A stretch of 64,000 nt of DNA, from IMG/VR virus record IMGVR_UViG_3300017987_000047; one strand, given 5' to 3'. The position numbers were made by a program, and so were the translations under genes. The DNA is from a virus (Duplodnaviria; Heunggongvirae; Uroviricota; Caudoviricetes). The stretch's first letter is position 1. Every line of letters begins with the position of its first letter. The notes beneath the pieces were generated by a model. The model ran no database searches. It saw only the letters and a program-made list of their open reading frames with translations, and was not told where the DNA came from. Positions 3 through 62,207 of this stretch are shown here, one piece after another.

Positions 3-308
3 ACGAAGTTTGAAAGAAACGGGGGAAATCTTAAAATCCGCATCGATTACCTTTTAATTGAGAAGATTAGGTTAATCGTATCAGCAGAGAAGCCAGAAGG
101 GAGACATAAACAGGAGATTAAGGCTTTGGAAGACCTTTATAAAGAACTTCCTAGCCTTCTCACTTCACCTAGAATACCTACCCGAACCCTGGCTAAAAGG
201 TGTAGAGTTTTACGAAAGATCTTTCAAGGGGAAGACTATGAAAAAGAAAAAGCAGCCCTGACAAATACGCTAAAGAAATACGATAATCTATTTTTTAAAA
301 GGGTATAG
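3..308 (+). CDS. hypothetical protein, 5' truncated by window edge
   Basis: Frame is open from base 3 to the TAG ending at 308; carries LLTSPRIPTRTLAK motif. Confidence 0.6.
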   Translation, partial: TKFERNGGNLKIRIDYLLIEKIRLIVSAEKPEGRHKQEIKALEDLYKELPSLLTSPRIPTRTLAKRCRVLRKIFQGEDYEKEKAALTNTLKKYDNLFFKRV

Positions 309-321
309 AAAGGTTAAGAAA

Positions 322-489
322 ATGACTAAGAAAGAGGCTTTGAGCCAATTTAAGGAATTTCATATGCCAAACATTCCAAGCAACGATAAACCTGCACTTC
401 GGCAGGCTTGGAATGATTACACAGACTATCTTTGTAAAGATAAACAAATTTCATTAAAACAATATGAAACTTGGGACAATCCCTTCTAA
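322..489 (+). CDS. small hypothetical phage protein (55 aa)
   Basis: Manual translation MTKKEALSQFKEFHMPNIPSNDKPALRQAWNDYTDYLCKDKQISLKQYETWDNPF; purine-rich leader; below ORF-track cutoff. Confidence 0.65.
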   Translation: MTKKEALSQFKEFHMPNIPSNDKPALRQAWNDYTDYLCKDKQISLKQYETWDNPF

Positions 490-503
490 CCTGTGTATAT
501 TAG

Positions 504-574
504 TTTAGGGTGATAACTAAAGTATTTGGCGTTGCAAACGCACGGGCGATCCCCAAATTCAGTTATCACCCAAA
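504..574 (+). ncRNA. candidate small structured RNA (three-way junction)
   Basis: GGGTGATAACT/AGTTATCACCC 11-bp stem enclosing ATTTG/CAAAT, GCGTT-GCA-AACGC and GGG-CGAT-CCC. Confidence 0.3.
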
Positions 575-590
575 TCTATTTTAAACTCCA

Positions 591-619
591 TCGTTTATCT
601 TTTAGCCTTCCCCATATAT
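591..619 (+). promoter_or_regulatory. bipartite promoter-like motif TCGTTTAWY-N8-TTCCCYATAT
   Basis: TCGTTTATC-ttttagcc-TTCCCCATATAT; recurs with the same spacing at 9352 and 35289. Confidence 0.55.
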
Positions 620-656
620 TTATAAATGCCAATACCCCAACCGTCAAGGGGCTTCA

Positions 657-1082
657 ATGGGTTTGCCTGGATACCTAGGAATGCAAAAGTATTACGAAAA
701 CGAGGAAATAAAAAACTTGGGATATTCTTCCCGGACTATCTATACAGGCCCAGACTTTGTAATCTGGGAAGGCCGTGCAGCCCAAACGTTTGCGGACAGT
801 TACTCTTTCGTAACTATTCGGGACGAGCGTTATGATTTCGAATATTATGGAGAAACACCGCTCTTGAGCCTAATCCGCGCTATTTTGGGGACAAAAGATG
901 ATCGGCTAATTCTAAAGGGCTTAAACGCTCTTCTTATTAAAGCGTATTTAGAGTATTTCCTAAAACACCCGGAAGACTTTATAAAACATATGGAAATACT
1001 TCAAGGACAACATTTCGAAGAGGGTCGCCGCGCAAAACAAGTTGAATTCCTTAGCGTTCTCGGAATCCATGAGGAGGAATAG
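657..1082 (+). CDS. hypothetical protein
   Basis: 141-aa ORF downstream of promoter-like motif. Confidence 0.65.
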   Translation: MGLPGYLGMQKYYENEEIKNLGYSSRTIYTGPDFVIWEGRAAQTFADSYSFVTIRDERYDFEYYGETPLLSLIRAILGTKDDRLILKGLNALLIKAYLEYFLKHPEDFIKHMEILQGQHFEEGRRAKQVEFLSVLGIHEEE

Positions 1083-1088
1083 TTAAAC

Positions 1089-5979: not shown

Positions 5980-6576
5980 ATGATGACCCAACCTTTTAAA
6001 GCACTAAGCCCATTCTTTTTTCGGCTAGAACTACATCTTTGCCTGGAAGTCCCAGGAGAAAAAATATGGAAAAAACGATTTATTGACCTTGTAGAAGGCG
6101 ATAATGATATTGTGCCAAAGGTCCTCTATTTTAGGGCAGAGCGAAATGTTCTAACAGAAGAGGATCTTAAGGTCATTGTTGCCCACGAATTTTACCATAA
6201 CCCTTATCATGAGTTCGGGGAGGATAAAAGGAAACTTAAAGTTAATGAAATTGATTTTATTGACTGTAGGGCTATTACTTGGAGCAAAAATACATATGGA
6301 GAAAAACAAGTATTAGAATACCCTAATCTTGGATATATCCAAATGAAATTGCGGAGAGACTTTTTGTATTCGGTCTCTCAGGTGCCATATACAACAGCGG
6401 GGACCATGACAACATTTCAGTTTGAAATTGAACAAATTAAGATTTACGAAGCCCCTCCAAAGTTAGAAACGTTTTTAACAACGCAGGATAAAGTAACGAG
6501 GGAATGGGCAAAAAGAGAGAAAGAATTTAAGGCGAGAAAAGAGGAAGAAGCAGACTCACGTCGAGGGAGATTTTAA
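5980..6576 (+). CDS. hypothetical protein
   Basis: 198-aa ORF; carries FLTTQDKVTREWAK motif. Confidence 0.65.
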   Translation: MMTQPFKALSPFFFRLELHLCLEVPGEKIWKKRFIDLVEGDNDIVPKVLYFRAERNVLTEEDLKVIVAHEFYHNPYHEFGEDKRKLKVNEIDFIDCRAITWSKNTYGEKQVLEYPNLGYIQMKLRRDFLYSVSQVPYTTAGTMTTFQFEIEQIKIYEAPPKLETFLTTQDKVTREWAKREKEFKARKEEEADSRRGRF

Positions 6577-7357: not shown

Positions 7358-7420
7358 TCAGATTCTTTGCAAAAACGCTAATTCCGCAGGTAAGCTTGAA
7401 GTTAAACAGAAGGATTGAAA

Positions 7421-10371: not shown

Positions 10372-10648
10372 AAGAACCCTTTTTGGGGAAAAGGCCCTCC
10401 AAAGCTTTCTTTTTTACGCAACCGATGAAACCCTTTTATATATCCAAATTGGGGAGGCTACTATTATCTCTAATGTAAGAGGGGGTATTAAAGATTTTTG
10501 GATAGGGCAGATCGAAACTAAACATGGTCTTTCAGAAATTGAAGAGATAAAACCAGAGACCTTGTTGACTAGCGAAAACCTAAGAGTTCGTAAGTATATA
10601 AAAGAAGTCTTAGAAAAAGGCGTTTTCACTTTTATAGAGGAAACCTAG
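10328..10648 (+). CDS. hypothetical protein
   Basis: ORF with LLTSENLRVRKYIK motif; start uncertain. Confidence 0.55.
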   Translation: MKKKCVAVKDGSFFRRTLFGEKALQSFLFYATDETLLYIQIGEATIISNVRGGIKDFWIGQIETKHGLSEIEEIKPETLLTSENLRVRKYIKEVLEKGVFTFIEET

Positions 10649-11073: not shown

Positions 11074-12138
11074 ATGGCATCTGAAAAAATTCTTACTATA
11101 GACCTAGATGAGTATTTTAAGGAGAAAGAGAATTTTAAGAGGCTAAGGCCGAGAAGGAGATATTATAGCGGGATCGGGGAAACTCCTTTTCGAACAGGGT
11201 GGCTCCAAGCTCTGAGCGAGGATATTGTAGTTCGGGTTGACCTTCACGGTTTGCTTTCTATTTTAGAACATGAGGATTGCTCTTGGCGGCATATTAGAGG
11301 GCTAACAAATCTTTTATTAAAGCATACAGATTTAACTTCTAATCAGGTAGACGTAGTTGTAGACACTTATCTAGGAAAACGTACATCTTTTTTTGAAGAT
11401 AGAAGCCCGCTAGACAAAGAAGTGAGCAACCGGATATCAAAAGCTATCTTTGATAAGCATTTTGATTTTCTTTTGAAACAAATTCCAGAGATTCCAAAGA
11501 AAACCACTCAACGGTTTTTTCATGAGCTTGCAGGGGAAGAACAAAAAATTAAGATCTTTCAAATAGTTGAGGATACCCAACTAAAAACTGAATTTCTAAA
11601 GAAGCTCCCCAAAAAGTATGCCACGGATCAACTAACAAGTAACCTCGTAGACTTACGCCAAGAAGCAAAAGGGATTATCACCGGAAAGAAGGTTAACTTT
11701 GAAAAGAAGCTTAAAACAGCTCTTGGAGAGACCTTTGCGGAGCTTTTTCCGGAAGGAAGCAGGAAAGAAAATTCGTTTGCGGGAGTAACCCTTCCACAAT
11801 CAAGGATTTTCAATAAACATAAGGTGGATGAGATTTTCTTCAGAAAACACAGAGGGGGTGTTTCACAGAAAAAAGACCCTAACCGATTTTATCTCGTAGT
11901 CAAAATTAATTCCAAGTATCGGCAAAGACCTTATCGATTACCATCCACCTACAAATCCCCTGGATTTTATATGGAAAAGACGGGGGAACTAATAAAGCAT
12001 GAGAGAAAGATGGGATACGGAGTTGATATTATTTTATCTTTCCCGAAAACAAGTTGGGATATCTTTAATACTTGGGTAAAAGAGAATCTAAAGTCTTCTA
12101 TATTAGATTGTATTATCCAACCCCGCTCATGGTTTTAG
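11074..12138 (+). CDS. hypothetical protein
   Basis: 354-aa ORF followed by terminator. Confidence 0.75.
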   Translation: MASEKILTIDLDEYFKEKENFKRLRPRRRYYSGIGETPFRTGWLQALSEDIVVRVDLHGLLSILEHEDCSWRHIRGLTNLLLKHTDLTSNQVDVVVDTYLGKRTSFFEDRSPLDKEVSNRISKAIFDKHFDFLLKQIPEIPKKTTQRFFHELAGEEQKIKIFQIVEDTQLKTEFLKKLPKKYATDQLTSNLVDLRQEAKGIITGKKVNFEKKLKTALGETFAELFPEGSRKENSFAGVTLPQSRIFNKHKVDEIFFRKHRGGVSQKKDPNRFYLVVKINSKYRQRPYRLPSTYKSPGFYMEKTGELIKHERKMGYGVDIILSFPKTSWDIFNTWVKENLKSSILDCIIQPRSWF

Positions 12139-13792: not shown

Positions 13793-14249
13793 AGGGGAAC
13801 AAGTTGAAATCGAAGATCCCCAAAAAGGGAACTTGAGTAGATTCCTAACATCTCAAAACCCAAAGGTACGAAACCATGTTGCTGCGATGCTTGGGTTAAA
13901 GATCTCAGGTATCGTGTATAAACAATTAGAATTTTATGTTGAGGAGATTCACGATCTTGAAAAGAAAAAGAAAAGAACTAGAACTTCCTTTAGAATAACT
14001 TTAATTAAGGAGGAGATTAAACTAAAAATTCTATTTACCGAAACCGGGGCGGAGACAGAAGTTTTTTTCTACTACCTTTTTGCTAAGGAATCGTTACCTT
14101 ATATTGAACAAGCTAGTTCTCTGAAACTGCTTCTCCCAAAAATTAAAAGCATTTTCGATAAAGAAATCGATATTGCTGCCCTCAAACAAAAGATTACCAA
14201 AAGGCTTCTAAAAGAGGTGAACAATGCTAGGACGTCAAGACAGGCTTAA
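13776..14249 (+). CDS. hypothetical protein
   Basis: 157-aa ORF; FLTSQNPKVRNHVA motif near N-terminus. Confidence 0.6.
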   Translation: MKRITRGEQVEIEDPQKGNLSRFLTSQNPKVRNHVAAMLGLKISGIVYKQLEFYVEEIHDLEKKKKRTRTSFRITLIKEEIKLKILFTETGAETEVFFYYLFAKESLPYIEQASSLKLLLPKIKSIFDKEIDIAALKQKITKRLLKEVNNARTSRQA

Positions 14250-16573: not shown

Positions 16574-17029
16574 ATGAATAGGCACCTCTTAAAATATCTG
16601 ACCTGTAACAGCCCTCTTTTAAGAAATTGGGTTAAAGAGAGAATTTATAGGGAAGATATTAGATTTGAAGTTATTGAAGGGGATATCGAATATGTCCCCG
16701 AAGAGACTCAATACGTTCGTGGAGAAATTGATATTACTGGTAGAAGACTTAAAAAGATAGATAGAAAAGTAATTTTTTGTGAGTTCCTGTTTTGTTGGAA
16801 TAACCAATTGTCTGAGCTTCCGGAATTACCTGTTTGTAGGTTATTAATTTGTTCAAGCAACCGACTGACTCGACTTCCGGAATTGCCTGTTTGTGAAAGC
16901 TTGATTTGCCACCATAATCAATTAGCATCCCTTCCTCGGCTGCCCGTTTGTACACATTTGGATTGTTCAGATAATAGGTTACCTGCTGGGTTATCCTTTT
17001 CAAAAAATGAAAACAATTTATCGCGTTAG
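16574..17029 (+). CDS. leucine-rich repeat protein
   Basis: Repeats of LxxLPxLPVCxxLxCxxNxL; N-terminal YLTCNSPLLRNWVK. Confidence 0.85.
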   Translation: MNRHLLKYLTCNSPLLRNWVKERIYREDIRFEVIEGDIEYVPEETQYVRGEIDITGRRLKKIDRKVIFCEFLFCWNNQLSELPELPVCRLLICSSNRLTRLPELPVCESLICHHNQLASLPRLPVCTHLDCSDNRLPAGLSFSKNENNLSR

Positions 17030-17402
17030 TCTGTACCAAGAACTGGATTTTAAGGCTAGGGAAACTTTCTTGTTTGAATGTTTGCCCGACCTTGATGAAC
17101 TATTACTATTCCTCCTTGATTTCATTTCCAAGTCTTTCTTCTACAAAGCCGAATTTTTACAGCTTATTCGGTACAAAAAAGAATTTCACAGCTTGTCTGG
17201 GGTTGGACAAATCGAGATGGAAGTTTGGGTGGACCCTTTGGAAAAAGAAAAGAAACCTTGGCGTTGTTTAATCCGGGCTTCAATCTCAGAAGTATCTTTC
17301 ACCCCCCTGGAAAGAAAAGAAACCTATTTAACTAACAAAAATTCAGAAGTAAGGTCATTAGCAAAAAACCTAAGTCAAAAGGCAGACCGCGATGAGGGAT
17401 AA
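17007..17402 (+). CDS. hypothetical protein
   Basis: 131-aa ORF; C-terminal YLTNKNSEVRSLAK. Confidence 0.65.
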   Translation: MKTIYRVSLYQELDFKARETFLFECLPDLDELLLFLLDFISKSFFYKAEFLQLIRYKKEFHSLSGVGQIEMEVWVDPLEKEKKPWRCLIRASISEVSFTPLERKETYLTNKNSEVRSLAKNLSQKADRDEG

Positions 17403-17796
17403 ACATATAAATGCTTTACCGAATGGGCAATTCGAGCTTGCAGATGAATACGTTATCAACTTCGAAGCGGAAACCCATGCTTCGTATAAAAGGTTATCTC
17501 GTTGCCAACTTTATTTTGTTATCTTCGTTTTTATAAACCTCATGCTTGCATTAGTTTCCTATCTATTCGGTATCTTCTGGCTTGTTATGAGCACAATTAC
17601 TTTATGTGTTTTCGAAAAAAAGGAGCGGGGACTTAAAAAAAGAAATGCAGACCGATTAAGAATGTTTGGGGATTCAGATTACGCCCTAACCCAAGCTTTA
17701 CCTTCCCTCGGCTTAAAGTATAAAGAAGTAACAAAATCTTTATTAACGCATCCTAGTAAAGAAGTTAGAAAAACAGCAAAGAAAGTTTTAAGTTAA
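17392..17796 (+). CDS. hypothetical membrane protein
   Basis: Hydrophobic segment; C-terminal LLTHPSKEVRKTAK. Confidence 0.65.
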   Translation: MRDKHINALPNGQFELADEYVINFEAETHASYKRLSRCQLYFVIFVFINLMLALVSYLFGIFWLVMSTITLCVFEKKERGLKKRNADRLRMFGDSDYALTQALPSLGLKYKEVTKSLLTHPSKEVRKTAKKVLS

Positions 17797-18376: not shown

Positions 18377-18899
18377 GTTAAACGATTACTTTAAGAGCCT
18401 TCAACCCAAGGACATTGATTATTCCTTTGGAAAATTAGAACTAAGGGGGAAAGGCTTTGAAATTCCTTTCGATAATAATTTTCGAAACCACCTTGGCCCC
18501 CAGGCCAAAGAACGGGTATATGCTCTTGAACTTGTTTTCCCAGATTTTAAGTGGGAACGGGTATATGTGATAATCGAAACAAACAAAAAGAAATTTAACT
18601 GGAAAAAGCTTCGCGAAGATTCCCGAACATATTATAAATACGTTATAGTAGGGCAAACAAAACAGGGAGAGACCCTTCAATACGAAAAAACTAATCCATA
18701 TTTTAGGCTTCTTAAAAATGGGGAGAGGGAAGCTAAGGATAAAACCTTTCTTTTAGTTCTCCCTGCCATAGAGGCTATTCGCCAAATTAAGGAGTTTGGC
18801 CATAAAAAAACAAAACTAAAACGTTGGCTAACCTCCAATAACAGATATCTTCGAATATTGGCTAAAAAGAAATTAGAAGGGGTTTGGCATGGAATCTGA
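18369..18899 (+). CDS. hypothetical protein
   Basis: 176-aa ORF; C-terminal WLTSNNRYLRILAK. Confidence 0.65.
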   Translation: MDKLNDYFKSLQPKDIDYSFGKLELRGKGFEIPFDNNFRNHLGPQAKERVYALELVFPDFKWERVYVIIETNKKKFNWKKLREDSRTYYKYVIVGQTKQGETLQYEKTNPYFRLLKNGEREAKDKTFLLVLPAIEAIRQIKEFGHKKTKLKRWLTSNNRYLRILAKKKLEGVWHGI

Positions 18900-19221
18900 A
18901 TTAGCCCAACATCTCACCTCAGCCTGCCCACTTATACGGAAACTAGCGAAAAATGCGTCTCAAATAGATGGAATCAAGCATCTTTGTCTTGAAAATTATG
19001 CTTGTCGAATCCTATACCTTTTTGAGTATAAAGGGTATGAGTTCGAAACTTGGTATTTTGATCCTGCCGTTTATGGACGCTTTTCTTATTTGTACGAATT
19101 TAGACTTCGAAAAGCTGGTTCTCCCATTTCGGTGAGAACCGAAAAGACTAACGATAGTTCTAAAATGCTGAACGCTATCCTCCAGGCTATAGAATTTGTT
19201 AAGGAGAATCTAAGTGCCTAA
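18889..19221 (+). CDS. hypothetical protein
   Basis: 110-aa ORF; N-terminal HLTSACPLIRKLAK. Confidence 0.65.
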   Translation: MESELAQHLTSACPLIRKLAKNASQIDGIKHLCLENYACRILYLFEYKGYEFETWYFDPAVYGRFSYLYEFRLRKAGSPISVRTEKTNDSSKMLNAILQAIEFVKENLSA

Positions 19222-19543: not shown

Positions 19544-19934
19544 CTTTTATTTAGTCCCTTTAACCCACAAAGGACCAAATTCAAAGTATTTCCCAGAAAC
19601 AAGGGTTTTGCATCCTGCCATTAGGGTAGACGACGCAATCTACGATCTTATTACTTTTAATTGGGGAAACCACGGTACGTCCGTAATTTCAGATGGGCTT
19701 CGTAAACTTCCCTCAAGGGAACCAGCTGATAGTCCGCTTTGGGATAGATATAAAGTTCCACCTTCTGTTTTTTTAACGAGTATTAGCCAATTTGCAAGAC
19801 ACCTAGCAAAGTCTTATTTAGCAGGAGATATTGACTGGGTTAGGATAGCAATTGAAATTGCTTATAGGGAACTAGGTAGGGAAATGGAATACTTTTTTCA
19901 AAAACTTCATGATAAAGGGGGATGCCTTCCATGA
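19530..19934 (+). CDS. hypothetical protein
   Basis: 134-aa ORF, ATGA coupling to next gene. Confidence 0.6.
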   Translation: MKTVDFYLVPLTHKGPNSKYFPETRVLHPAIRVDDAIYDLITFNWGNHGTSVISDGLRKLPSREPADSPLWDRYKVPPSVFLTSISQFARHLAKSYLAGDIDWVRIAIEIAYRELGREMEYFFQKLHDKGGCLP

Positions 19935-20449: not shown

Positions 20450-20919
20450 TAACCCTAGCTTCTCTTTTAACTATGGGGCGCGGCGAACATCTCTTTGCTA
20501 AAGAAATAATTCCCATTCTTGGAAAAAACTTCGAGGTTTTTGGGGTGGAAAAAAGGTCAAAGAGAAACTTTAGGGTTTATCTTACAAAATATTTTTGGGT
20601 TGATGTTTCCCCGCAAATTTACGTAGTTTGGAACCGCACTTTGCCCGAATTCCAATACTCTGTTATAACCTACAAGGAAGTTATATATAGGGTCAATAAC
20701 CCTTTTGAACCAGAATATTCCTTTATTCGGGGTTTAGATGAGGTATTACGCGAAATCAAAAATGAATTTAAGTCTAAGTTAAAACGATTTTGGCATTCCT
20801 TTCATTTTAACAGACACCTTAAAAACTCTCTTTTTAATCGGAACCTTAAAAACCCACCTTTCGCTTCTTCCGCCTTATCCCCTTCGTTAAAATTTCTTGT
20901 TGAAAATCAGAGGAAATAG
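20446..20919 (+). CDS. hypothetical protein, paralog A
   Basis: Aligns along its length with 20950..21390. Confidence 0.7.
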   Translation: MITLASLLTMGRGEHLFAKEIIPILGKNFEVFGVEKRSKRNFRVYLTKYFWVDVSPQIYVVWNRTLPEFQYSVITYKEVIYRVNNPFEPEYSFIRGLDEVLREIKNEFKSKLKRFWHSFHFNRHLKNSLFNRNLKNPPFASSALSPSLKFLVENQRK

Positions 20920-20949: not shown

Positions 20950-21390
20950 ATGGCAATGAAATTAGCAACTTTGTTAACCATGAAACGGCCTGTCGCCCTT
21001 TTCGCAAAGAAGGTAATTCCAATTCTTGGAAAGGATTTCAAGCTTTTTGCGGTAGAGAAGAACGATGAATGTTCACAATTTATCATTTGTTTCACCGAGT
21101 ACTTTTGGGTTGAAATTTTCCCCCAATACTTGATATCCACCAACCCTAATTATATTCTACCGGAATATCAATATATTGTTAAGACTTATAAGGATATTAA
21201 GAATTATGGATATCTAAATTATTCATTGGTTAGAGACCTGGGTAGCGTGCTCCAGGAAATTAAAACAGAATTAAAACCAAAGCAAAAACGATTTTGGCAT
21301 TGTTTTCGTTTTCTCTTTTTTGTTAAAAATTCTGTAAGATGGAAATACGCCAGGGAAGACAAAGTTGTTCCAACTAAGCGAAACCCTTAA
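20950..21390 (+). CDS. hypothetical protein, paralog B
   Basis: LLTM..LFAK..IPILGK.F..F.VEK...FWVE..PQ..PEYQY...KQKRFWH.F.F shared with paralog A. Confidence 0.7.
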   Translation: MAMKLATLLTMKRPVALFAKKVIPILGKDFKLFAVEKNDECSQFIICFTEYFWVEIFPQYLISTNPNYILPEYQYIVKTYKDIKNYGYLNYSLVRDLGSVLQEIKTELKPKQKRFWHCFRFLFFVKNSVRWKYAREDKVVPTKRNP

Positions 21391-26932: not shown

Positions 26933-27020
26933 ATGATTGAAAAATATTTAACGCATTCAAATCTAGAAGTACGAAAAGTTATTAAAAAATCCTAGAGGAA
27001 GATAGACCAGTGAACCTATA

Positions 27021-28274: not shown

Positions 28275-28588
28275 ATCTAGAATACCTCCTGGGTTTTGAT
28301 GACCTTGAGGAGAATCGTTTCTATTACATCGTCGTAAACAAGGATTCTCTTAAGAATGGTATTCCAAATTTGTTAACCCATAAGAATGAGAAAATCCGGT
28401 GGTGGGTGAAAGTAGAACATAACAAAGTTAACTTCTCGGGGGAGTGGCAACGTCTCTATAAAGAAAAACAGCTTCGGGTTATTTTTGTCGGACACACCCC
28501 TGAGAACGAGAAATCTTTTCAACAGAAGATTACCGATTGTCTCCTTTTGCGGGTACTAAAAGATATGACCGATCGTCTTGAGGCTTAG
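28271..28588 (+). CDS. hypothetical protein
   Basis: ATGA coupling; LLTHKNEKIRWWVK. Confidence 0.6.
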   Translation: MNLEYLLGFDDLEENRFYYIVVNKDSLKNGIPNLLTHKNEKIRWWVKVEHNKVNFSGEWQRLYKEKQLRVIFVGHTPENEKSFQQKITDCLLLRVLKDMTDRLEA

Positions 28589-28689: not shown

Positions 28690-29706
28690 ATGGAAATTAA
28701 ATTCAAGGTAACAGAAAAAGATATTGGGGGTCTGTTACAGAAAGTTTTTGCGAGTAGGAAACCCAAAATACTTCGTTACTGGCGGCTTGAGAGCGAATCG
28801 CAATTTTTGATCCGGAACAATAAAATAATCGCTTCCTTCCCTTTAGCTTGTCAAGTGAATGAAAACTATTACATCTTTAAGCCTTTCCGGGTCATTTTAA
28901 GCGAGCCAGATTACCTTCCCCAAGATGCTACCTACGACAAATCGAAAAGGTCTATAAACCTGGCCCAGTTTTTAACGACAAAGGATGAGGTCGTTCGCAA
29001 AACTGCCCGATACGCTTTAAATAACCCTCCGATAACAGTTGATTGTAAATATGAAAGCCAGTATTTCCATAACGCCGCAGAGATTAAAAAGGCGATTTCG
29101 GGCTTTAGCGGGATTACAGTTAGGAAGAAACAAAAGCGGCGAGCGTTGTCCGACTTTAGAACAATTACTCTGAATTTTAGAAACAGGGTCTTTCTAAAGA
29201 TTAATGTTGATATTAAGAGCACAACAAAGCAAGAACTTTTACAAAGGGTAAAGGAAACAAAAGAAAAAGCAGAGAAAATCTATCCGGTACTTTTGAACAA
29301 AGATGTTCTATTTGAAGAATCCCAGGTAAATGAGGGCCATTATTGGTATGACCTGGCTCCAACTTATTTTTCAAAAGAAGCTGAGATTAAAGGGGTTACA
29401 CGAACAATAAGAACTTCTGTTTTCTTTGATTGTTATGAAATTGTTTTAGATGATATAGCGGGTATCGAATTTCTTTTACACCTACATGATTTAGTTCTAC
29501 CAACACTTCAAGCTTTCTTTAAAAACCAGAAGCAAGAATTTACTCTTCTTCTTGGGAAGGAAGATCTTAGGGTCTCAGCAGTTGACCTTAAAACGCGTAT
29601 TGTCCTGGGAACCTCTATTATAGATATATCCCAACCCGCAGACCTTGTTATCCAGGAATTGGAAGATCGCCTAAACGATTTAGAAACCGCATCTCTCCCG
29701 GTTTAA
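28690..29706 (+). CDS. hypothetical protein
   Basis: 338-aa ORF; FLTTKDEVVRKTAR. Confidence 0.7.
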   Translation: MEIKFKVTEKDIGGLLQKVFASRKPKILRYWRLESESQFLIRNNKIIASFPLACQVNENYYIFKPFRVILSEPDYLPQDATYDKSKRSINLAQFLTTKDEVVRKTARYALNNPPITVDCKYESQYFHNAAEIKKAISGFSGITVRKKQKRRALSDFRTITLNFRNRVFLKINVDIKSTTKQELLQRVKETKEKAEKIYPVLLNKDVLFEESQVNEGHYWYDLAPTYFSKEAEIKGVTRTIRTSVFFDCYEIVLDDIAGIEFLLHLHDLVLPTLQAFFKNQKQEFTLLLGKEDLRVSAVDLKTRIVLGTSIIDISQPADLVIQELEDRLNDLETASLPV

Positions 29707-35660: not shown

Positions 35661-36200
35661 ATGAAACCAGAAACGATCTATGGTTTCCCCCGCTCTTTAA
35701 TCACTTACCAAAAGGGGAGGATTAAGAAGAGCGCAGAGGGGGTCAACCTAACTTTTAAAAAAATTCGTCCTTACCTTTCCTTAAAAACCCAAAGTAACCT
35801 AGAGATCTTTACGAAGGTTAAACAAATTACGTGGAAAAAGGTATGGGTCTTTTTCGTAAAACGAAGACGACGAGAATATTCAAAAACAAAGGTTACGTAT
35901 AAAGAATATGAAAGAGCCTCTATCCTCATTGAAGGAAAAGACGAAAAAGGAATCGTTTACCAATATTGGAGAAAAGAAACGGCCCACCCAGGAGCGGGAC
36001 AGACTCTTTTATATACTGAAGGGCGGAAACCAAAGCAAGCAATGAATATCATTGGAAACTATGCTAACGCCCATATGAAAGTTAAGCGTGCGATTAAAAA
36101 GAACGAGCTAAAGTCTTTATTAACAGACGAAGATAAATTTGTGCGAACATTCGCAAAGGAAGCATTAGGAGAACAAGATGGCGACGAAATACCCGACTGA
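35661..36200 (+). CDS. hypothetical protein
   Basis: 179-aa ORF; C-terminal LLTDEDKFVRTFAK. Confidence 0.65.
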   Translation: MKPETIYGFPRSLITYQKGRIKKSAEGVNLTFKKIRPYLSLKTQSNLEIFTKVKQITWKKVWVFFVKRRRREYSKTKVTYKEYERASILIEGKDEKGIVYQYWRKETAHPGAGQTLLYTEGRKPKQAMNIIGNYANAHMKVKRAIKKNELKSLLTDEDKFVRTFAKEALGEQDGDEIPD

Positions 36201-40667: not shown

Positions 40668-41042
40668 ATGCTTCGGATGGACGACGTATATGAATTACGG
40701 ATTATCTTTCGGGAAGAAACTAGAGTTGTAGCATGTTATTATCTGAAAGAGATTCCATCCGAAACTGAAGTATTTGCGATGACCTTAAGTTTCATAAGCA
40801 CTCTTTATTATGTGACCGAAATAAAGATGGGGATTAGCCGGGGCCTCTTTTCGGTTAAACGAAAAAGACAGGTGTTTAGTGAGGTCCCCGGCTGGTCTTT
40901 TTATCGGGTAGAAGGACGAAAGATAGCAGCACAGAGACATAAACAATTTTGTCCTATACCAAACCTAAAAGAATTCCTGACTCACAAAGCTCCGGCAGTA
41001 CGAAACACTACCAAAAAATATTTAAATTTTTCTAAAAAATAG
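40668..41042 (+). CDS. hypothetical protein
   Basis: GGAGG RBS; C-terminal FLTHKAPAVRNTTK. Confidence 0.65.
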   Translation: MLRMDDVYELRIIFREETRVVACYYLKEIPSETEVFAMTLSFISTLYYVTEIKMGISRGLFSVKRKRQVFSEVPGWSFYRVEGRKIAAQRHKQFCPIPNLKEFLTHKAPAVRNTTKKYLNFSKK

Positions 41043-41555: not shown

Positions 41556-41564
41556 TGTGAATAA

Positions 41565-45358: not shown

Positions 45359-45886
45359 ATGGGGTATGAACTAAATCTCTACGTTGGGGAATTTTCCCTT
45401 GATTACCTAAAGACCCCAGCCCTTCTCTGCCGACCTTTTGGTTTAATAGACCTTTGCAAAATTGGAATGTCGGAAATCTCGAAGCTCAATAATCTTCGTA
45501 AGGAAAAACCTCTAACCCAGCTTCAAGCATTTCTGTATGCTGAAGACGGGAATACGAAAATATTCGAAGATCCTATTGGAGAACCTCTTCGGGTTTGTAC
45601 TTTCACTGAAACTCTTGCAGCACTAAAGACAGATGCTTCGCGTTCCAGCTATAGACGGTTCTCATGGGCTTTGGATTTATTAAGAGGAATTGAAAAAACA
45701 GAATTCGTCCCAGCCCTAACGTCCCAGCAACCCGAAATCAGAGCTTACGCAAAAAAACATTTCGAATTGCTTAAAAAGCTTGAACGAGATGGCGTGCGTT
45801 CAACCGCAATTCGGGAATTCCCTGCAGACAAAGAAAAATATATATTTGATATTCGTTGCGTTGGAGTGCTCCTTTTTGGGCACTAG
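45359..45886 (+). CDS. hypothetical protein
   Basis: 175-aa ORF; ALTSQQPEIRAYAK. Confidence 0.65.
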   Translation: MGYELNLYVGEFSLDYLKTPALLCRPFGLIDLCKIGMSEISKLNNLRKEKPLTQLQAFLYAEDGNTKIFEDPIGEPLRVCTFTETLAALKTDASRSSYRRFSWALDLLRGIEKTEFVPALTSQQPEIRAYAKKHFELLKKLERDGVRSTAIREFPADKEKYIFDIRCVGVLLFGH

Positions 45887-46221: not shown

Positions 46222-46230
46222 ATCCTGGTT

Positions 46231-46323
46231 GGGGGACTAGCTCAATTGGTAGAGCAGCGGGTTTATGCCCCGTGTTAGTGTCTGATAAACACAAGGTTCT
46301 GGGTTCGAGTCCCAGGTCCCTCA
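46231..46323 (+). tRNA. atypical 93-nt tRNA, anticodon UAU, long extra arm
   Basis: GGGGGAC/GTCCCTC acceptor, GCTC/GAGC D stem, GCGGG-TTTATGC-CCCGT, 25-nt variable region, CTGGG-TTCGAGT-CCCAG. Confidence 0.85.
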
Positions 46324-46337
46324 TAAGAAAAAGAAAA

Positions 46338-46730
46338 ATGGAAGCGGTCTGGATGGCGGAGCTAGAAGCTACTGGGAAATTTAAGATCTCCCGTATGCGG
46401 CATTTTAAGAAAGATCCCTCCATGCGCGAACTAGCTCTTTGGGCACTTCAAGAAGTCGAAAGATCTATACAGCATGACAAAATTTTAGACGTCTTTAATT
46501 TCCGAATACACCGCGATGTAAATAGCTATAAACCATTCTGTACAGATTTTTACATCGCCACGTCTGTTGGTTATGTTGAAGTCTCCGTAAAGAAAAAGAA
46601 ATGGGAAGTATTTGATAACCTGCCTTGTGAAGCTTATCTCACCGGCGAGGGCCAACAAACAAGAGGGATCGCAAAGAAAATTAGGGAGAAGAAAATCCTT
46701 AACATTTCAAACGAACAATTAGAAGGATAG
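46338..46730 (+). CDS. hypothetical protein
   Basis: ATG just after the tRNA; YLTGEGQQTRGIAK. Confidence 0.6.
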   Translation: MEAVWMAELEATGKFKISRMRHFKKDPSMRELALWALQEVERSIQHDKILDVFNFRIHRDVNSYKPFCTDFYIATSVGYVEVSVKKKKWEVFDNLPCEAYLTGEGQQTRGIAKKIREKKILNISNEQLEG

Positions 46731-49192: not shown

Positions 49193-49209
49193 CTTTTTTC
49201 GGGTGTGCA

Positions 49210-49636
49210 ATGCCTGATATTATCATAAATAAGCCGACAGAAGAGGATCTCAAATCGCTCCCGGAATTCTGCAATATCGCAGTAATTAATGGAGCCCACA
49301 CAAAGTGGCTGCTCAGAGAATTCCAGGACGAAATTGGTTCTTTCTCTGTGGGTATCACGTTTATGCTAAATACTATTATCTAGACAACTACGCTTTAGTA
49401 GAAAATAATATAGAAGTCGAAGCGCGCTGTCTTGGGATACACGTATAGTAAGAATAAACCCCTCTTCCGTGATAAGAATCGCTGACTGGTTACCAGACCA
49501 TATTCAAGCTATCCAATCAAATCCGCGGAGGTATTTAACCGGGGAAAGTGCAGTTACCCGAACCTTAGCTAAAACCTATTTAAAGCAAAATGAATTACAA
49601 CTGGACAAAAAGCAAAGAGCGAATCCTTCTTTCTAA
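49210..49636 (+). pseudogene. possible frameshifted or degraded ORF
   Basis: Short open stretches in three frames; the last carries YLTGESAVTRTLAK but has no clear start. Confidence 0.35.
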
Positions 49637-51463: not shown

Positions 51464-52615
51464 ATGGAATTGCCTTTGAAGGTTATCCTAGACCTTAACC
51501 CGTTAGCAGCAGAACTGTATGAAGAGTTAAAGTTCCCAACGGAGATTAGGGTTTGGCCTGATATGCAAAGAGTTTTTTCGGGCGAACAAAAACTTGCTTC
51601 CATGAAAGGAGGTTTGGGATTTGCAAAACTTCCCGTAATCATTCAAGCAGATTTTGCATATCAAGTTTCCAGAACTATTTTTATGGATGTCCCTTTAGAG
51701 ATTAGAGGGGCGAACACGAGCGAGATAGTACTAAAACCCCGTAAAGTTTGTGGAGTCACGCGAAGTTTCATTGGGAAAATCCATGAAAATCTGACTTCAA
51801 ATATTCCAGAAATTCGAACACAAGTAAAACGCGCAGTTAAAACAGAGCCACAAATTTTCAGATTTCCTGAAGGGGAAGAGCATCTTCCAACACTCAAAAT
51901 CTGCGAGAAATTAAACGACAAGCTACAACACTTTACTTTAGAGCCCCGGGAAGCGGTGGATCGAGAAACGGACGTAGATATTGTTTGTACTCTAGCTCCA
52001 GTTAACGTAACTGTGAGTGCTAAATCTCTCGGGACCCTCCGCGAAATTAAATTTTCAAAGATCTTAGAATTCTTCACCTCTCTTGATTGTTATTGTGCTC
52101 AGCTCGCGCAAACAACCCTAAATTACAAAATTACTGAGTTTGACCTTAGCTGCTGTATCTCTTATGAGCAGGAAGAGTTTACTGCCCATTGGACTGTAGA
52201 CCCAATTTTTGGGGTAAGCACTTACGGCCAAATGTTTAGAACAATATCTAACACTTTTGGAAATATCGATTTACTTGTAAGAGTGGAGAAAAACCCGGGG
52301 TTTGAGACTGGTTCTGATTTGGCGACGTACCTTATAACCCTTGAAATGTTTATTGCAGCCCTAAGCTCCCTCTGGGTGTCTAACCCATGTAGTATACATA
52401 AATTTATTGCAATTAAATTTTCGCCCGGCAATGGGGAAGAATTAGAAGTATCCCTTATATCTCTAGCAATCTCGGTTGACCCCTGTAGTGGTTATAGTAA
52501 TAATCCCTATAACTATCACGACACGCTTCAGAGGTTGCTTGGGGATGAAAAAACGGGGAAGCGTCGGATGTCTCTTTATGCTTTTAATGATATGATTAGC
52601 GAAATAATCAATTAA
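51464..52615 (+). CDS. hypothetical protein
   Basis: 383-aa ORF directly after the NADAR stop. Confidence 0.7.
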   Translation: MELPLKVILDLNPLAAELYEELKFPTEIRVWPDMQRVFSGEQKLASMKGGLGFAKLPVIIQADFAYQVSRTIFMDVPLEIRGANTSEIVLKPRKVCGVTRSFIGKIHENLTSNIPEIRTQVKRAVKTEPQIFRFPEGEEHLPTLKICEKLNDKLQHFTLEPREAVDRETDVDIVCTLAPVNVTVSAKSLGTLREIKFSKILEFFTSLDCYCAQLAQTTLNYKITEFDLSCCISYEQEEFTAHWTVDPIFGVSTYGQMFRTISNTFGNIDLLVRVEKNPGFETGSDLATYLITLEMFIAALSSLWVSNPCSIHKFIAIKFSPGNGEELEVSLISLAISVDPCSGYSNNPYNYHDTLQRLLGDEKTGKRRMSLYAFNDMISEIIN

Positions 52616-53831: not shown

Positions 53832-54228
53832 AATAGAAGAAATTAAGCAAGTAAGTTTTATTTTCACAGACGGCCTCCCTTTATGGGATTCGAATCTTAC
53901 TTCTTTTCTTCTTACCGAAGATATAACAGTAAAAAGGCTTGGGCAAGCCTTGCTTTATTGCCTACAAGCAATGCCACCCCGCAAAGACCCTTCCAAGCTT
54001 AAAATTACCGAAATAATAGCAGGAAAGCTTTATAACCTTAGTTATTCTGTGGTTGATAAACTTTGTGGAGAACAGATAGAATATAGCAGCTCTTATGCTA
54101 TCAAGGTTAGCCCTTTTCTCCTCTCCCACTTTGTAAACACAACCACACTAAAAATCGCTCATGCAACTTCGCTGACATCGGAGATGATTGGGGCCCGGAC
54201 ATTCGCCAAGGCGCTAAACAATGATTAA
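53818..54228 (+). CDS. hypothetical protein
   Basis: C-terminal SLTSEMIGARTFAK. Confidence 0.6.
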   Translation: MGEYKIEEIKQVSFIFTDGLPLWDSNLTSFLLTEDITVKRLGQALLYCLQAMPPRKDPSKLKITEIIAGKLYNLSYSVVDKLCGEQIEYSSSYAIKVSPFLLSHFVNTTTLKIAHATSLTSEMIGARTFAKALNND

Positions 54229-54640
54229 AGTTCTTTTCAGGCATTTTAAGGGCTATTACATCTCTTCCCCAGCATCCGTATTCTCTAAAATACTGGAAGT
54301 GCAGGATATCGAGGAGTCCACAATACGAGCCCTTGTGCTCAAAATGTTTGAACAAGAAATAGAAGAATTAGACGAACTTAAACTTATTCCGCCTTCTGCC
54401 TTAACTCTTGATGAATTAGCTCATTTTTCTACGGAAGAACAGAAAACCTTACGGGAGAGTGCTTTCCTTGTAAGAGCTAAGCTCTTGACCCCATCTGGAG
54501 AATCCCAATATATAATTCAGTACCCAGAGGTTGAAGTATATATACCAGATTTCGCTGCAGTGAAATCTTTGCTTACCCATTCGCACCCAGGAATTAGAAA
54601 TTTTGCCAAAGAAACGTTGGGAGATTCTAATGACGACTGA
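54221..54640 (+). CDS. hypothetical protein
   Basis: C-terminal LLTHSHPGIRNFAK. Confidence 0.6.
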   Translation: MIKVLFRHFKGYYISSPASVFSKILEVQDIEESTIRALVLKMFEQEIEELDELKLIPPSALTLDELAHFSTEEQKTLRESAFLVRAKLLTPSGESQYIIQYPEVEVYIPDFAAVKSLLTHSHPGIRNFAKETLGDSNDD

Positions 54641-54911
54641 CACCGACATTGAAGAACTTATCGATATAGAAACCGATACGGAGAACCCTTGGAAAGTTTT
54701 GCTTTTCAATGACGAAGACCATAGCTTTGATGAGGTAATTCTCCAGGTGCAAAAAGCCAAGGGCTGTACTCTTGAAGAAGCAATTGAGATTACACTAACA
54801 GCACACAGCTCAGGCCAAGCGATAGTTAAAGTAGATACAATGGAAGAATGTGAAAGGGTAGCGGGTGTGTTGCAACAAATTCAACTCCGTACTTGTATCG
54901 AGCGTGCTTAA
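54630..54911 (+). CDS. clpS: ClpS-like Clp protease adaptor
   Basis: WKVLLFNDEDHSFDEV...A..I...AHSSGQAIV. Confidence 0.85.
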   Translation: MTTDTDIEELIDIETDTENPWKVLLFNDEDHSFDEVILQVQKAKGCTLEEAIEITLTAHSSGQAIVKVDTMEECERVAGVLQQIQLRTCIERA

Positions 54912-59857: not shown

Positions 59858-59895
59858 AAGAAAAAACCTCTCCATTTTCGGAGAGGTTTTTTCTT
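59858..59895. terminator. bidirectional intrinsic terminator
   Basis: AAGAAAAAACCTCTCC-ATTTTC-GGAGAGGTTTTTTCTT between convergent genes. Confidence 0.85.
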
Positions 59896-59906
59896 CGTTT
59901 TTATTT

Positions 59907-60380
59907 TTAACGGTCTAAAACATAAAATGTATAAGTTTTTTGATCCGTATTACTAAGCAAATCGCTCGCGCCAATTGTTAGCGATACCCCAGATAAGAGA
60001 TTTGATGTTGAAGTTCCGCTAATAACCCCACCGGAACTAAAGTTAAACCCAAAACCTGAAATTGACCCAGATACAATACTCCAAGAAACATCTCCATAAG
60101 CATTTATCGAAGTTAGCTGGTAAGTATAAGGCTCGTTCGTAATAGCACCCGGCAAAACTTCTGTAGTGATCTGAAAGCTATTATCGGCAGGGCTATAGAA
60201 AGCATTAAAAGGATACAGCGAATCTTTATTATGGAATAAAGGGCTACTTCCTCGCCGGGGGTGGGCGGCAGAATATTTTGATGCGGCAGCAGCAAGGTCT
60301 CGCAGACTCTCGCCAATTAAACCATTACCTAAGGCCCCTCTTTCTTTTCTTAGGGCTTTTTCTCCTGGGTCTAATGTCAT
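59907..60380 (-). CDS. putative Ig-like (He_PIG-type) domain protein
   Basis: ITTEVLPGAITNEPYTYQL...WSIVSGS...GVISGT...IGASD. Confidence 0.7.
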   Translation of the reverse strand: MTLDPGEKALRKERGALGNGLIGESLRDLAAAASKYSAAHPRRGSSPLFHNKDSLYPFNAFYSPADNSFQITTEVLPGAITNEPYTYQLTSINAYGDVSWSIVSGSISGFGFNFSSGGVISGTSTSNLLSGVSLTIGASDLLSNTDQKTYTFYVLDR

Positions 60381-60381
60381 T

Positions 60382-60939
60382 TTAAACCTCTTTTAGTTCC
60401 TTGAAAATATTATGAAGTTCTTGTAAAGAGTTTACTAAATCTTTGTTATTTTTAGCCTCTATCGCTCGATTATCAAACTCTCTTAAGGTCGGATGAATCC
60501 CAGTCCCAGGGAGCATCCCCAAAACTTCGCTTTTCTTATATAAGATATCTCTGATTTCCTTAAATAAGATATCAGCCTGCTCTTCGATAACTTTTAACAC
60601 TCTTGGGTCATATTCTTCGATTATAGGAGGGACTTCTAAAACTTCTCTAAAGTTTTCCCACCTCAAAAGAATTTTTTCGAACGGGCGAGGCATCGGATCA
60701 AAAATATCTTGATTCTTAAAATAGAGATCTGCTAAAGCTCCCTCATTCCCATCAGAAAAGGCACTATACAAGGCAGCTGCAAGATCCACATGTTCTGGCA
60801 AGACCTTTCCAGGTTTATCTGATTTTTCCAGTAGTTTCCCTCGTAATAAATTATAAGCGAGACCGAAAATTGGAAAATCCGCTGCAAGAACCAAAGCTTT
60901 AGCCAGTTTTGTTAGTTTTGTTGATAGTTTCATTAGCAT
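60382..60939 (-). CDS. hypothetical protein with basic amphipathic N-terminal leader
   Basis: MLMKLSTKLTKLAKALVLAA; GAGG RBS. Confidence 0.65.
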   Translation of the reverse strand: MLMKLSTKLTKLAKALVLAADFPIFGLAYNLLRGKLLEKSDKPGKVLPEHVDLAAALYSAFSDGNEGALADLYFKNQDIFDPMPRPFEKILLRWENFREVLEVPPIIEEYDPRVLKVIEEQADILFKEIRDILYKKSEVLGMLPGTGIHPTLREFDNRAIEAKNNKDLVNSLQELHNIFKELKEV

Positions 60940-60986
60940 AGCATACCTCTTTTTAAAAGAAGGATTAACACAATATTAAGGAAAAA

Positions 60987-61508
60987 GTGATGAATCTAGA
61001 GAAATTCGAGCCAGTTGCATATTATGATTATGGCACTATTTCTTATGGCCTTTATGCTGAAGGTTGGGGCTATTACGCAGATGCTATATTTATGTTGTTG
61101 TGCTTTACTAAAAAGTGTAGGCTTCCACAACTCTTAACGAAAGATACGAATCAAATAGAAATATCAACACGGCCAGAAAAATTTAAGGGACTAAGGGAAG
61201 AATGTGTTGGGAAGCAGCAATTTTTTAGGTGGGAACCTTCCCCAGCAGAATATAAACTAATTATTCATGAACTAGTTAGGGAGGTTACTGCTACAACAAG
61301 CGCAGAGCGGAGAAAAAAATATAAGGAGGGGCTAAATTGCTTACAAAAGAACAGAAAAAATAAAAGTAGGGAGGCATTCTCCTTAAAAGAGATTTATAAT
61401 AAGGTACGTCAAAAACTTTACGAAGAGCGTCTAATTCTTATGGGAAGTTCAACGGGAGTTGGCACTACTTATATCATTTGCGACACGACTAATAGCACGG
61501 TGGGCTAA
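60987..61508 (+). CDS. hypothetical protein
   Basis: 173-aa ORF. Confidence 0.55.
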   Translation: MMNLEKFEPVAYYDYGTISYGLYAEGWGYYADAIFMLLCFTKKCRLPQLLTKDTNQIEISTRPEKFKGLREECVGKQQFFRWEPSPAEYKLIIHELVREVTATTSAERRKKYKEGLNCLQKNRKNKSREAFSLKEIYNKVRQKLYEERLILMGSSTGVGTTYIICDTTNSTVG

Positions 61509-61790
61509 AATTTGTAAACTGCGACGCTTGCTAGTTAGGTGAGCCGGGTCGGTTTGTAACTTTCTTAGGTGGTCTAAACAAGTTCCCGAGAAGAGACCAT
61601 TTTTTGTGTCCCAAGGTAGAATCTTTATGTCGGCGCTATCCCGACGAAGTGTATACAAAGCCTTAGTAGATTTTACCTGAAAATAGGTGACTCTATCTTC
61701 GGAAACCTCTTCCACAACTCCATAGATAAAATGAGGGAGATCGTACGTTTCCATAATAACAAGGATGGGATCTCCCACTTTGAAAGTCAT
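61449..61790 (-). CDS. hypothetical protein
   Basis: AGGAG RBS; C-terminal HLTSKRRSLQILAH. Confidence 0.6.
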   Translation of the reverse strand: MTFKVGDPILVIMETYDLPHFIYGVVEEVSEDRVTYFQVKSTKALYTLRRDSADIKILPWDTKNGLFSGTCLDHLRKLQTDPAHLTSKRRSLQILAHRAISRVANDISSANSR

Positions 61791-61901
61791 TTCATTTTCT
61801 CCTAATAATTATACAAAAGCCTACGAAGGTTCAAACGTAGTTCTAAAAAAATTCAAAATATAAATAATAACAGGGTGAATTGCCTAACGTAGGAGTATAT
61901 A

Positions 61902-62207
61902 ATGCTGGAGAAGAAGGACCCCGAAGCTTGCCTTAATACGTTATTTTGGGTGAAAGAAAAGGGCTTTCCTCCCAAGTATTGGTATCTAACTGAAAAGCAT
62001 TTTATCGTTTTAAAAGAAAACGAAATCCCCGATAACCAGATTAAAGCGTATAAAAAAGGGACAGCCGCGTATACGCAACACATAGAGATTATCTCTGGCA
62101 AAAAAGTCGACCTTGAGATAGAAATAAAAAAAGATACGATTAAAACATTACTGAGGTCCCCTTCGCGGTTAATCCGCCTCTGGGCTAATCAGGAAAGATA
62201 TATTTAA
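61902..62207 (+). CDS. hypothetical protein
   Basis: AGGAG RBS; C-terminal LLRSPSRLIRLWAN. Confidence 0.6.
   Translation: MLEKKDPEACLNTLFWVKEKGFPPKYWYLTEKHFIVLKENEIPDNQIKAYKKGTAAYTQHIEIISGKKVDLEIEIKKDTIKTLLRSPSRLIRLWANQERYI

Follow-up and report, generated by a model that had tools for sequence, protein, structure and literature searches.

Encapsulin cargo-loading peptides, microcompartment encapsulation peptides and the type VI MIX and RIX markers are short terminal peptides by which unrelated proteins reach one destination or carrier. F-boxes and the PRANC ends of poxvirus ankyrin proteins are short helical modules on expanded, fast-evolving families that also carry a variable binder, such as leucine-rich repeats (LRR), WD40 or ankyrin, and these modules dock on one adaptor. 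In the MIT-MIM system, ESCRT-III proteins end in short helices, which are the ligands of the N-domain in Vps4-type AAA ATPases. T-even phages have a hypervariable set of small, often basic internal proteins that share only a short conserved peptide, the capsid targeting sequence or CTS (PMC3012670). Here we analyze a short peptide, hereafter the tag, that recurs with fixed spacing (L-T-x6-R-x2-A-K) in otherwise unrelated proteins encoded by a 64,000-nucleotide stretch (the window) of a tailed phage of the Caudoviricetes, IMG/VR record IMGVR_UViG_3300017987_000047. No such tag is described in the literature that we searched.

Comparison with these systems revealed both likenesses and differences. 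The T-even CTS comprises approximately 10 residues, is strictly N-terminal and is removed by the prohead protease, whereas the tag lies at either end of a protein or internally, has no cleavage motif, occurs on membrane proteins as well, and bears no sequence similarity to the CTS that we could see. With the F-box the tag shares a layout, that of a short helical module on a large, fast-evolving set of proteins with variable bodies. However, the F-box, a Skp1-binding module of the eukaryotic ubiquitin system, forms three helices from 40–50 residues, compared to the two helices and ~19 residues of the tag, and a Pfam scan of 20 carriers and of the tag peptides returned no F-box or PRANC match. 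The likeness to MIT-MIM pairs lies in a short terminal amphipathic helix with Arg/Lys and Leu, and the window contains a classical AAA gene (29680–30819, minus strand), but MIM1 is a single helix with a different consensus. The encapsulin, microcompartment, MIX and RIX peptides differ from the tag in sequence, and none of them is a HEAT-type hairpin.

The motif is real and strongly non-random. We found 23 copies of [F/Y/L]-L-T-x5-[V/I/T/L]-R-x2-[A/V]-K in the window (Table 1), comprising the 18 listed in an earlier note on this DNA, all of which were recovered in the same open reading frames (ORFs) with the same residues, and five more. All 23 copies are in plus-strand ORFs, with none in the reverse frames; each carrier has a single copy, and the carriers represent approximately one quarter of the genes in the window. 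The strict form LT-x6-R-x2-AK was observed 15 times among the 95 ORF products, whereas 2000 residue shuffles yielded 0.026 on average and never more than 1, and a back-translated degenerate DNA pattern gave 15 matches where 0.22 were expected. The fixed spacing was borne out as well, in that patterns with an [A/V]K ending matched 18 times at a spacing of 6 and not at all at the other spacings from 2 to 10. A profile built from the copies scored 21 of them at 21–30 bits and two weaker ones (11632 and 32524) at 15.6–16.9 bits, and the top score of the same profile in the three reverse frames was 6.1 bits. The fuller consensus has Leu or Ile at position −4, an aromatic residue or Leu at −1, Leu at 0, Thr at 1, Ser or His at 2, often Pro at 5, Val, Ile or Thr at 7, Arg at 8, a hydrophobic residue at 10, Ala or Val at 11, Lys at 12 and Leu at 15. 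Because one tagged minus-strand gene sits just outside the window, the tag follows the orientation of genes and not a DNA strand. Two variants one residue shorter, reported for ORFs 20446 and 20950, are genuine: these ORFs are paralogs (48% identity) that share an N-terminal LLTM....LFAK without the Arg. The weaker copies proposed for ORFs 61790 (minus strand) and 61902 reached only 1.6–2.7 bits and are not demonstrable.

The window corresponds to approximately positions 185,417–249,416 of a 335,479-bp metagenomic contig (ENA ERZ27256770 k141_416325), and our sampling covered ~115 kb of the 335 kb. Over the stretches fetched, the JGI, Logan and ENA copies of the window were identical or differed by 2 bases in 22 kb, and one window protein is also recorded on a 384-kb contig. 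The closest GenBank record is LR745208.1, a 485-kb "uncultured phage" with 46–49% amino acid identity over one 722-residue protein, and we therefore regard the phage of the window as a huge phage. A locus ~86 kb upstream on the same contig (L022) contains 15 copies of the tag in 20.8 kb, while a second lineage (lineage B), represented by the Logan contig SRR23332761_215337 (43,078 bp, 35% GC), contains 16. More copies were found on small contigs from other metagenome samples, one of them labelled marine sediment. The tag is nearly identical across the two lineages, whose shared proteins are just 25–47% identical; Glu is frequent in helix A of the tag, and in lineage B it is the rule at position −3. 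The tag is kept at the aligned position in ORF 35661 and its ortholog P0002 (66% identity), in a pair of 372 and 373 residues (28%), in a nucleotidyltransferase-like pair (27%) and in the ORF 11074 family (25%), for which the lineage B homologs retain L-S-x6-R-x2-AK at the aligned site. A further syntenic pair, of 383 residues (ORF 51464) and 379 residues (lineage B), carries tags at residues 110 and 118 in bodies that cannot be aligned. The 485-kb genome LR745208.1 had no tag by profile or DNA pattern in a search with a positive control, ~170 kb of related IMG/VR and JGI metagenomic loci had none, and tblastn of a double tag against 50,697 GenBank phage records gave chance-level matches only. 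The tag is restricted to a lineage and retained across deep divergence.

Once the tag was masked, all-versus-all BLASTP (E<0.05) linked no two tagged proteins, consistent, at the level of sequence, with the earlier description of the ORFs as unrelated, and full-length homology within one paralog family was not found. Sub-families do exist (ORFs 20446 and 20950, and the ORF 11074 family, which has three paralogs in lineage B). In the window, Pfam and PHROGs recognize no tagged protein except for the LRR body in ORF 16574, in which ~40 residues separate the tag from the repeats; an AlphaFold2 model of this carrier, computed with no alignment given, had a mean predicted local distance difference test (pLDDT) score of 38. 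The tag had been described as absent from recognizable enzymes, and this holds within the window but not elsewhere in the genome, where a nucleotidyltransferase-like protein bears it. A strong transmembrane segment was found in four or five of 56 tagged proteins, from both lineages. ORF 17392, for example, has a strongly hydrophobic segment at residues 42–74 (~33 residues), and basic residues flank the side on which its C-terminal tag lies. The carriers thus belong to many families of differing body type, and do not form one diverged family. Among 49 strict copies from three loci (the window, L022 and the lineage B contig), 30 are C-terminal, 13 N-terminal and six internal, so that 43 of 49 agree with the description of the motif as lying near a terminus. 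An N-terminal copy can have as few as 4 residues ahead of its Leu (MDSLLT...) and a C-terminal copy as few as 2 beyond its Lys (...FAKEL, ...VIKKS), and the functional unit is therefore approximately 19 residues. Tagged proteins are basic (median isoelectric point 9.3 versus 6.8), and the tag itself has a mean net charge of +2.5 over 25 residues.

The fact that the tag often lies near gene boundaries is the one point in favor of a DNA-level element, such as a promoter, a recombination site or the scar of a gene-shuffling cassette, that is translated by coincidence. All six Leu, all four Thr and all six Arg codons occur at the invariant positions, indicating that selection acts on the peptide and not on the DNA. 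Identity at third codon positions was 0.32 among copies, compared to 0.26 in random in-frame segments of other genes, the best-matching pair of 60-nucleotide tag segments was 62% identical, and the distance from tag to stop codon ranged from 2 to 43 codons. We consider such an element exceedingly improbable, and the cassette scar suggested in the earlier note can be set aside. A reading of L-T as a −35-like promoter box (TTG ACN) was ruled out on the same grounds, with all six Leu codons in use. The other suggestion in that note, a portable peptide tag, is upheld by the peptide-level selection, the position at either end, the unrelated bodies and the retention at 25–28% identity.

According to its model, the tag is structurally a single HEAT-type repeat. 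AlphaFold2 predicted, from 44 aligned natural tags, a helix at residues 7–15, a three-residue turn and a second helix at 19–29, with a core pLDDT of 91–94; the model thus has the A-helix, turn and B-helix of a HEAT repeat (PF02985, PF13646, PF03130). The closest solved hairpins were those of designed armadillo repeats, alphaRep and the HEAT repeats of PP2A-A (root-mean-square deviation 0.3–0.5 Å over 23–24 residues, 25–52% identity), although the E-values of these structural matches were not significant because the query is too short. The tag profile matched a designed helical-repeat protein in the PDB (E 1e-5), and the neighbors of the tag region in the ESM Atlas were HEAT, PBS-lyase and LRV proteins. 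The ESM Atlas models of two whole proteins, p54221 and p30923, were poor (pLDDT 0.46 and 0.50), and consistent neighbors came from the tag region only. When the profile was run against 1.84 billion representative proteins, 22 matched at E≤1e-3. These were genuine HEAT_PBS solenoids, whose repeats read ALTDEDxxVRxxAAxALG, small tagged phage orphans, and a few translations of simple repeats. The Leu at 0, the polar residue at 2, the Pro at 5, the Val/Ile-Arg at 7–8, the Ala at 11 and the Leu at 15 coincide with the HEAT consensus register, and HEAT, HEAT_2, HEAT_PBS, alphaRep and designed armadillo proteins have the same hairpin in the same register, L-x-[D/S/H]-x2-P-x-[V/I]-R-x2-A-x3-L. The likeness to a single HEAT/PBS-lyase unit proposed in the earlier note is therefore supported by predicted hairpin, register and profile matches. 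Pfam matched only two of 20 tags at all, and the best scores fell below threshold (14.8 versus 23.5 bits for HEAT, 14.7 versus 27.7 for HEAT_2). HEAT-type units stand in tandem in a solenoid of at least three, whereas the tag, of ~19 residues, is single in every window carrier, is mostly terminal, has an invariant Thr after the Leu and a Lys replacing the second Ala, both of them peculiar to this lineage, and sits on >100 unrelated bodies. A few proteins elsewhere (P0006, P0008 and P0012) bear two tags ~21–29 residues apart, or one in each copy of an internal duplication.

We infer a common protein partner, and a role for it, from the combination of these features. Our hypothesis, which we rate as slightly better than an even chance, is that the tag acts as a portable handle for docking, becoming folded as it binds and linking >100 accessory proteins to one conserved cytoplasmic partner. 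The module consists of one HEAT/PBS-type unit (end of the A helix, a six-residue turn and B helix), at minimum ~19 residues that begin four positions ahead of the Leu and end two past the Lys, attached to either end, or rarely the middle, of fast-evolving, unrelated accessory proteins of a huge phage. Its carriers range from LRR binders and a nucleotidyltransferase-like enzyme to small membrane-anchored proteins, and many are orphans. The tag would dock in trans on the one partner, making each tagged protein a client or adaptor of a single hub. Because a single repeat of ~19 residues cannot bury its hydrophobic face alone, it would be expected to fold on binding; this, together with its short size, the constraint on the peptide, the placement at either end, the near-identity in two lineages and the occurrence on >100 proteins per genome, argues for a docking handle for one conserved partner. 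The partner would be met in the cytoplasm, since the tag of ORF 17392 is on the basic-flanked side of the hydrophobic segment and strong transmembrane segments recur among the carriers.

Two proteins can be offered as candidate partners, as leads only, because their genes are present in both tag-bearing lineages and not in the tag-less relative. The protein p30923 is acidic and untagged, shares 34% identity with its lineage B homolog, and has a Cys cluster and an invariant CRDAHDIKD motif; it has no Pfam family, no PHROG family, no GenBank phage homolog and no IMG/VR relative. A co-fold of its conserved core (residues 1–235, two-row alignment) with the 44-row tag alignment scored 0.01, and in one run the partner's own fold was uncertain; this outcome weighs on neither side of the question of binding. 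The classical AAA ATPase gene is transcribed divergently from that of p30923, and the N-domain of its product, ~170 residues, is unassigned. The second candidate, encoded by the gene at 54630–54911, is a ClpS (PF02617) as judged from its alignment to ClpS and UBR ClpS-like domains (E 3e-7 to 4e-6); at the N-D-D/E...H motif for substrate binding it has FNDEDHSF where the lineage B copy has YNDHQHTF. The ClpS gene directly follows a tagged gene in both lineages, and is not present in the 485-kb relative. The two lineages have in common a block (of which 53268–54911 in the window and 16561–19496 in L031 are part) made up of a 5'-3' exonuclease gene, a gene of ~150 codons, a tagged gene of ~380 codons and then ClpS, into which a sigma-70-family gene and a LigT-like gene are inserted in the window. 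Lineage B also encodes, at L025 14535–17072, an 845-residue ClpA/ClpB-type double-AAA protein with a Clp_N domain, beside GlnRS and MoxR/VWA-type genes. The proteostasis-type genes of the window are those for ClpS, an SPFH protein, the classical AAA ATPase and an M50 peptidase. Our leading guess for the hub, although well below an even chance, is one of proteostasis or remodelling, with the tagged proteins acting as F-box-like receptors or as substrates for timed turnover and ClpS or an AAA+ protein as the entry point; the LRR bodies suggest an F-box-like logic of this kind, in which a variable binder is combined with a constant handle.

Several observations weigh against a docking handle with one protein partner. 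The profile search of 1.84 billion proteins returned no phage protein with multiple tag-like repeats that might be a solenoid receptor. The phyletic pattern that singles out p30923 and ClpS rests on two tag-bearing lineages and one tag-less genome, with partial sampling. The role of the invariant Thr and Arg may be a structural one alone, like that of the Arg in ordinary HEAT repeats, and would then be uninformative about a partner, and the basic character of tag and carriers is as compatible with binding to nucleic acid as with an acidic protein partner.

The last of these points raises the possibility that the tag is a nucleic-acid tether, a basic hairpin, with Thr/Ser, Arg and Lys where helix B begins, that would touch the phosphate backbone and hold proteins on phage DNA or on an abundant RNA. 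The net charge of +2.5 and the spacing of Arg8 and Lys12, one helical turn apart, are consistent with this, a weak profile match to eL36 (E 0.11, not significant) falls on its rRNA-binding helix, which shares the R-x2-AK-x2-L pattern, the window is rich in DNA- and RNA-repair enzymes, and the HEAT-like repeats of AlkD-type glycosylases bind DNA. However, the affinity to be expected of a single hairpin is very low, the tag has neither a Gly-rich loop nor any other known signature of nucleic-acid binding, Glu is frequent in helix A, and the enzymes of the window that act on nucleic acids are without the tag, so that we regard a tether as unlikely. Quite unlikely, in our estimation, is a capsid-targeting signal, by which the tag would load small, basic anti-host proteins on the scaffold or inner capsid for injection with the DNA. 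Among phages, the T-even CTS offers the nearest precedent for a short tag shared by many unrelated proteins, and the tagged proteins here are small, hypervariable and basic. Yet the tag is not confined to the N-terminus in the manner of a T4-type CTS (30 of 49 strict copies being C-terminal and six internal), no conserved cleavage motif such as a prohead-protease site flanks it, >100 different proteins per genome carry it, and the tagged genes lie among repair and metabolism genes instead of head genes. The membrane-anchored carriers also speak against capsid loading as a general role, and because they recur in both lineages we consider it less likely than a proteostasis hub.

It is very unlikely that the tags associate with each other, pairing or stacking their hairpins into hetero-oligomers, a condensate or a solenoid in trans. 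Fragments of repeat proteins can reassemble, as in split designed armadillo proteins, and the two-tag proteins P0006, P0008 and P0012 show that adjacent units are tolerated, but >95% of carriers have exactly one copy, and promiscuous pairing of >100 proteins has no obvious use. An equally low probability attaches to the absence of any common partner, with the hairpin serving as an intramolecular cap or stabilizer or the carriers forming one very diverged paralog family. LRR proteins often need helical caps, and the sub-families of ORFs 20446/20950 and 11074, along with the signs of gene birth or decay at 49409 and 26933, fit this possibility; against it, the same peptide is N-terminal, C-terminal or internal on LRR, nucleotidyltransferase-like, membrane and orphan bodies, the tag and the LRR repeats are ~40 residues apart, and similarity outside the tag is not detectable.

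Table 1. Copies and variants of the tag in the window, and genes of the two candidate partners.
Feature	Position	Strand	Remarks
Tag core LTSPRIPTRTLAK	159..197	+	In 5'-open ORF 3-308; 23.2 bits
Tag LTTQDKVTREWAK	6475..6513	+	C-terminal, ORF 5980-6576 (198 aa); 26.2 bits
Tag LTSENLRVRKYIK	10565..10603	+	C-terminal, ORF 10286/10328-10648; 27.0 bits
Weaker internal tag LTSNLVDLRQEAK	11632..11670	+	ORF 11074-12138 (354 aa); 15.6 bits; missed in earlier note
Tag LTSQNPKVRNHVA	13845..13883	+	N-terminal, ORF 13776-14249 (157 aa); 26.4 bits
Tag LTCNSPLLRNWVK	16598..16636	+	N-terminal, LRR protein ORF 16574-17029 (151 aa)
Tag LTNKNSEVRSLAK	17328..17366	+	C-terminal, ORF 17007-17402 (131 aa)
Tag LTHPSKEVRKTAK	17743..17781	+	4 residues before C-terminus, ORF 17392-17796 (134 aa)
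Tag LTSNNRYLRILAK	18828..18866	+	C-terminal, ORF 18369-18899 (176 aa)
Tag LTSACPLIRKLAK	18913..18951	+	N-terminal, ORF 18889-19221 (110 aa)
Tag LTSISQFARHLAK	19773..19811	+	ORF 19530-19934 (134 aa); 22.2 bits; missed in earlier note
Variant LTMGRGEHLFAK, one residue shorter, without Arg	20467..20502	+	N-terminal, ORF 20446-20919
Variant LTMKRPVALFAK	20974..21009	+	N-terminal, ORF 20950-21390, paralog of ORF 20446
Tag LTHSNLEVRKVIK at 26948, tag-only 20-codon ORF MIEKYLTHSNLEVRKVIKKS	26933..26995	+	28.1 bits; missed in earlier note
Tag LTHKNEKIRWWVK	28373..28411	+	ORF 28271-28588 (105 aa)
Internal tag LTTKDEVVRKTAR	28972..29010	+	Residue 95 of ORF 28690-29706 (338 aa)
p30923, untagged acidic protein, 353 aa	30923..31984	+	Candidate partner by phyletic pattern; isoelectric point 4.8, net charge -29
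Weaker internal tag LTDNDVGKRVVAK	32524..32562	+	ORF 32062-32964 (300 aa); 16.9 bits; missed in earlier note
Tag LTDEDKFVRTFAK	36120..36158	+	C-terminal, ORF 35661-36200 (179 aa); kept in ortholog of 66% identity
Tag LTHKAPAVRNTTK	40977..41015	+	C-terminal, ORF 40668-41042 (124 aa); 29.8 bits
Tag LTSQQPEIRAYAK	45716..45754	+	ORF 45359-45886 (175 aa)
Tag LTGEGQQTRGIAK	46638..46676	+	C-terminal, ORF 46338-46730 (130 aa)
Tag LTGESAVTRTLAK	49535..49573	+	Start-less fragment 49409-49636
Internal tag LTSNIPEIRTQVK	51791..51829	+	Residue 110 of ORF 51464-52615 (383 aa); missed in earlier note
Tag LTSEMIGARTFAK	54172..54210	+	C-terminal, ORF 53818-54228 (136 aa)
Tag LTHSHPGIRNFAK	54572..54610	+	C-terminal, ORF 54221-54640 (139 aa); ClpS gene begins within last codons of this ORF
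Phage ClpS, 93 aa	54630..54911	+	Candidate partner by phyletic pattern and adjacency
Possible degenerate copy LTSKRRSLQILAH	61500..61538	-	ORF 61449-61790(-); 1.6 bits, not significant
Possible degenerate copy LRSPSRLIRLWAN	62151..62189	+	C-terminus of ORF 61902-62207; 2.7 bits, not significant

Some of the tagged ORFs show signs of turnover. The tag-only ORF 26933–26995 begins in frame right after the TAA stop of ORF 26507–26932, and could be a C-terminal tag that a nonsense mutation has severed, an extension reached by read-through, or a free peptide that competes with the tags. The fragment 49409–49636 has no start codon and is in another frame than the short ORF 49186–49383; gene callers leave 49193–49589 uncalled, and the fragment probably represents a tagged gene in decay. 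A distance of 47 nucleotides and a change of frame separate the C-terminal tag of ORF 18369 from the N-terminal one of ORF 18889, and these adjoining tags (18828–18951) may hint at how tagged genes split or arise side by side.

Nearly all genes of the window are on the plus strand. Those with a recognizable product encode a WGR-PARP protein, ATP- and NAD-dependent DNA ligases, three RNA ligases, a PNKP-like kinase/phosphatase and a 2H phosphoesterase. They also encode a NADAR protein, an NAD salvage and synthesis block, a class II aminoacyl-tRNA synthetase, a 5'-3' exonuclease and two sigma-70-family factors. Nucleic-acid repair and NAD genes are unusually concentrated at 1089–28274 and 36178–38202. 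Two ATP-dependent DNA ligase homologs, at 7415–9328 (plus strand) and 12348–13325 (minus strand), are 27% identical to each other, and an NAD-dependent LigA is also present. RNA ligase genes are located at 27021 and 62427, the PNKP-like gene at 15708, and Nudix, NAPRTase, NadE and NadD-like genes at 21668–26510. There are two phage tRNA genes, one for Leu (TAA) at 41472–41556 and one of Ile type (anticodon TAT, 95 nucleotides) at 46230–46324; a long ORF starting at 46143 overlaps the latter, and the tagged gene therefore most likely starts at 46338. A search for the host by means of the phage aminoacyl-tRNA synthetase found no match.

The tag is one of the rare instances in nature in which a unit of a repeat protein is used on its own, and as such bears on the origins of solenoids and on the design of docking by split repeats. 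The motif can also serve as a simple marker of this uncultured clade of phages and of the genes in it that evolve fastest. If the tag is an address label for approximately one quarter of the genes in the region, identification of the partner that reads it would place >100 orphan proteins in a functional context at once, would show how giant phages organize their accessory arsenal, and would provide a compact natural tag for recruiting cargo. It is quite possible, although we would place it short of an even chance, that this lineage of huge phages has a sorting or adaptor system of its own, in which a single-repeat HEAT hairpin, folding as it binds, plugs >100 rapidly diversifying effectors (LRR binders, enzymes, membrane anchors and orphans) into one conserved hub, possibly a new machine. 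Such a system, if true, would be for a prokaryotic virus what F-box/SCF or organelle targeting signals are elsewhere.

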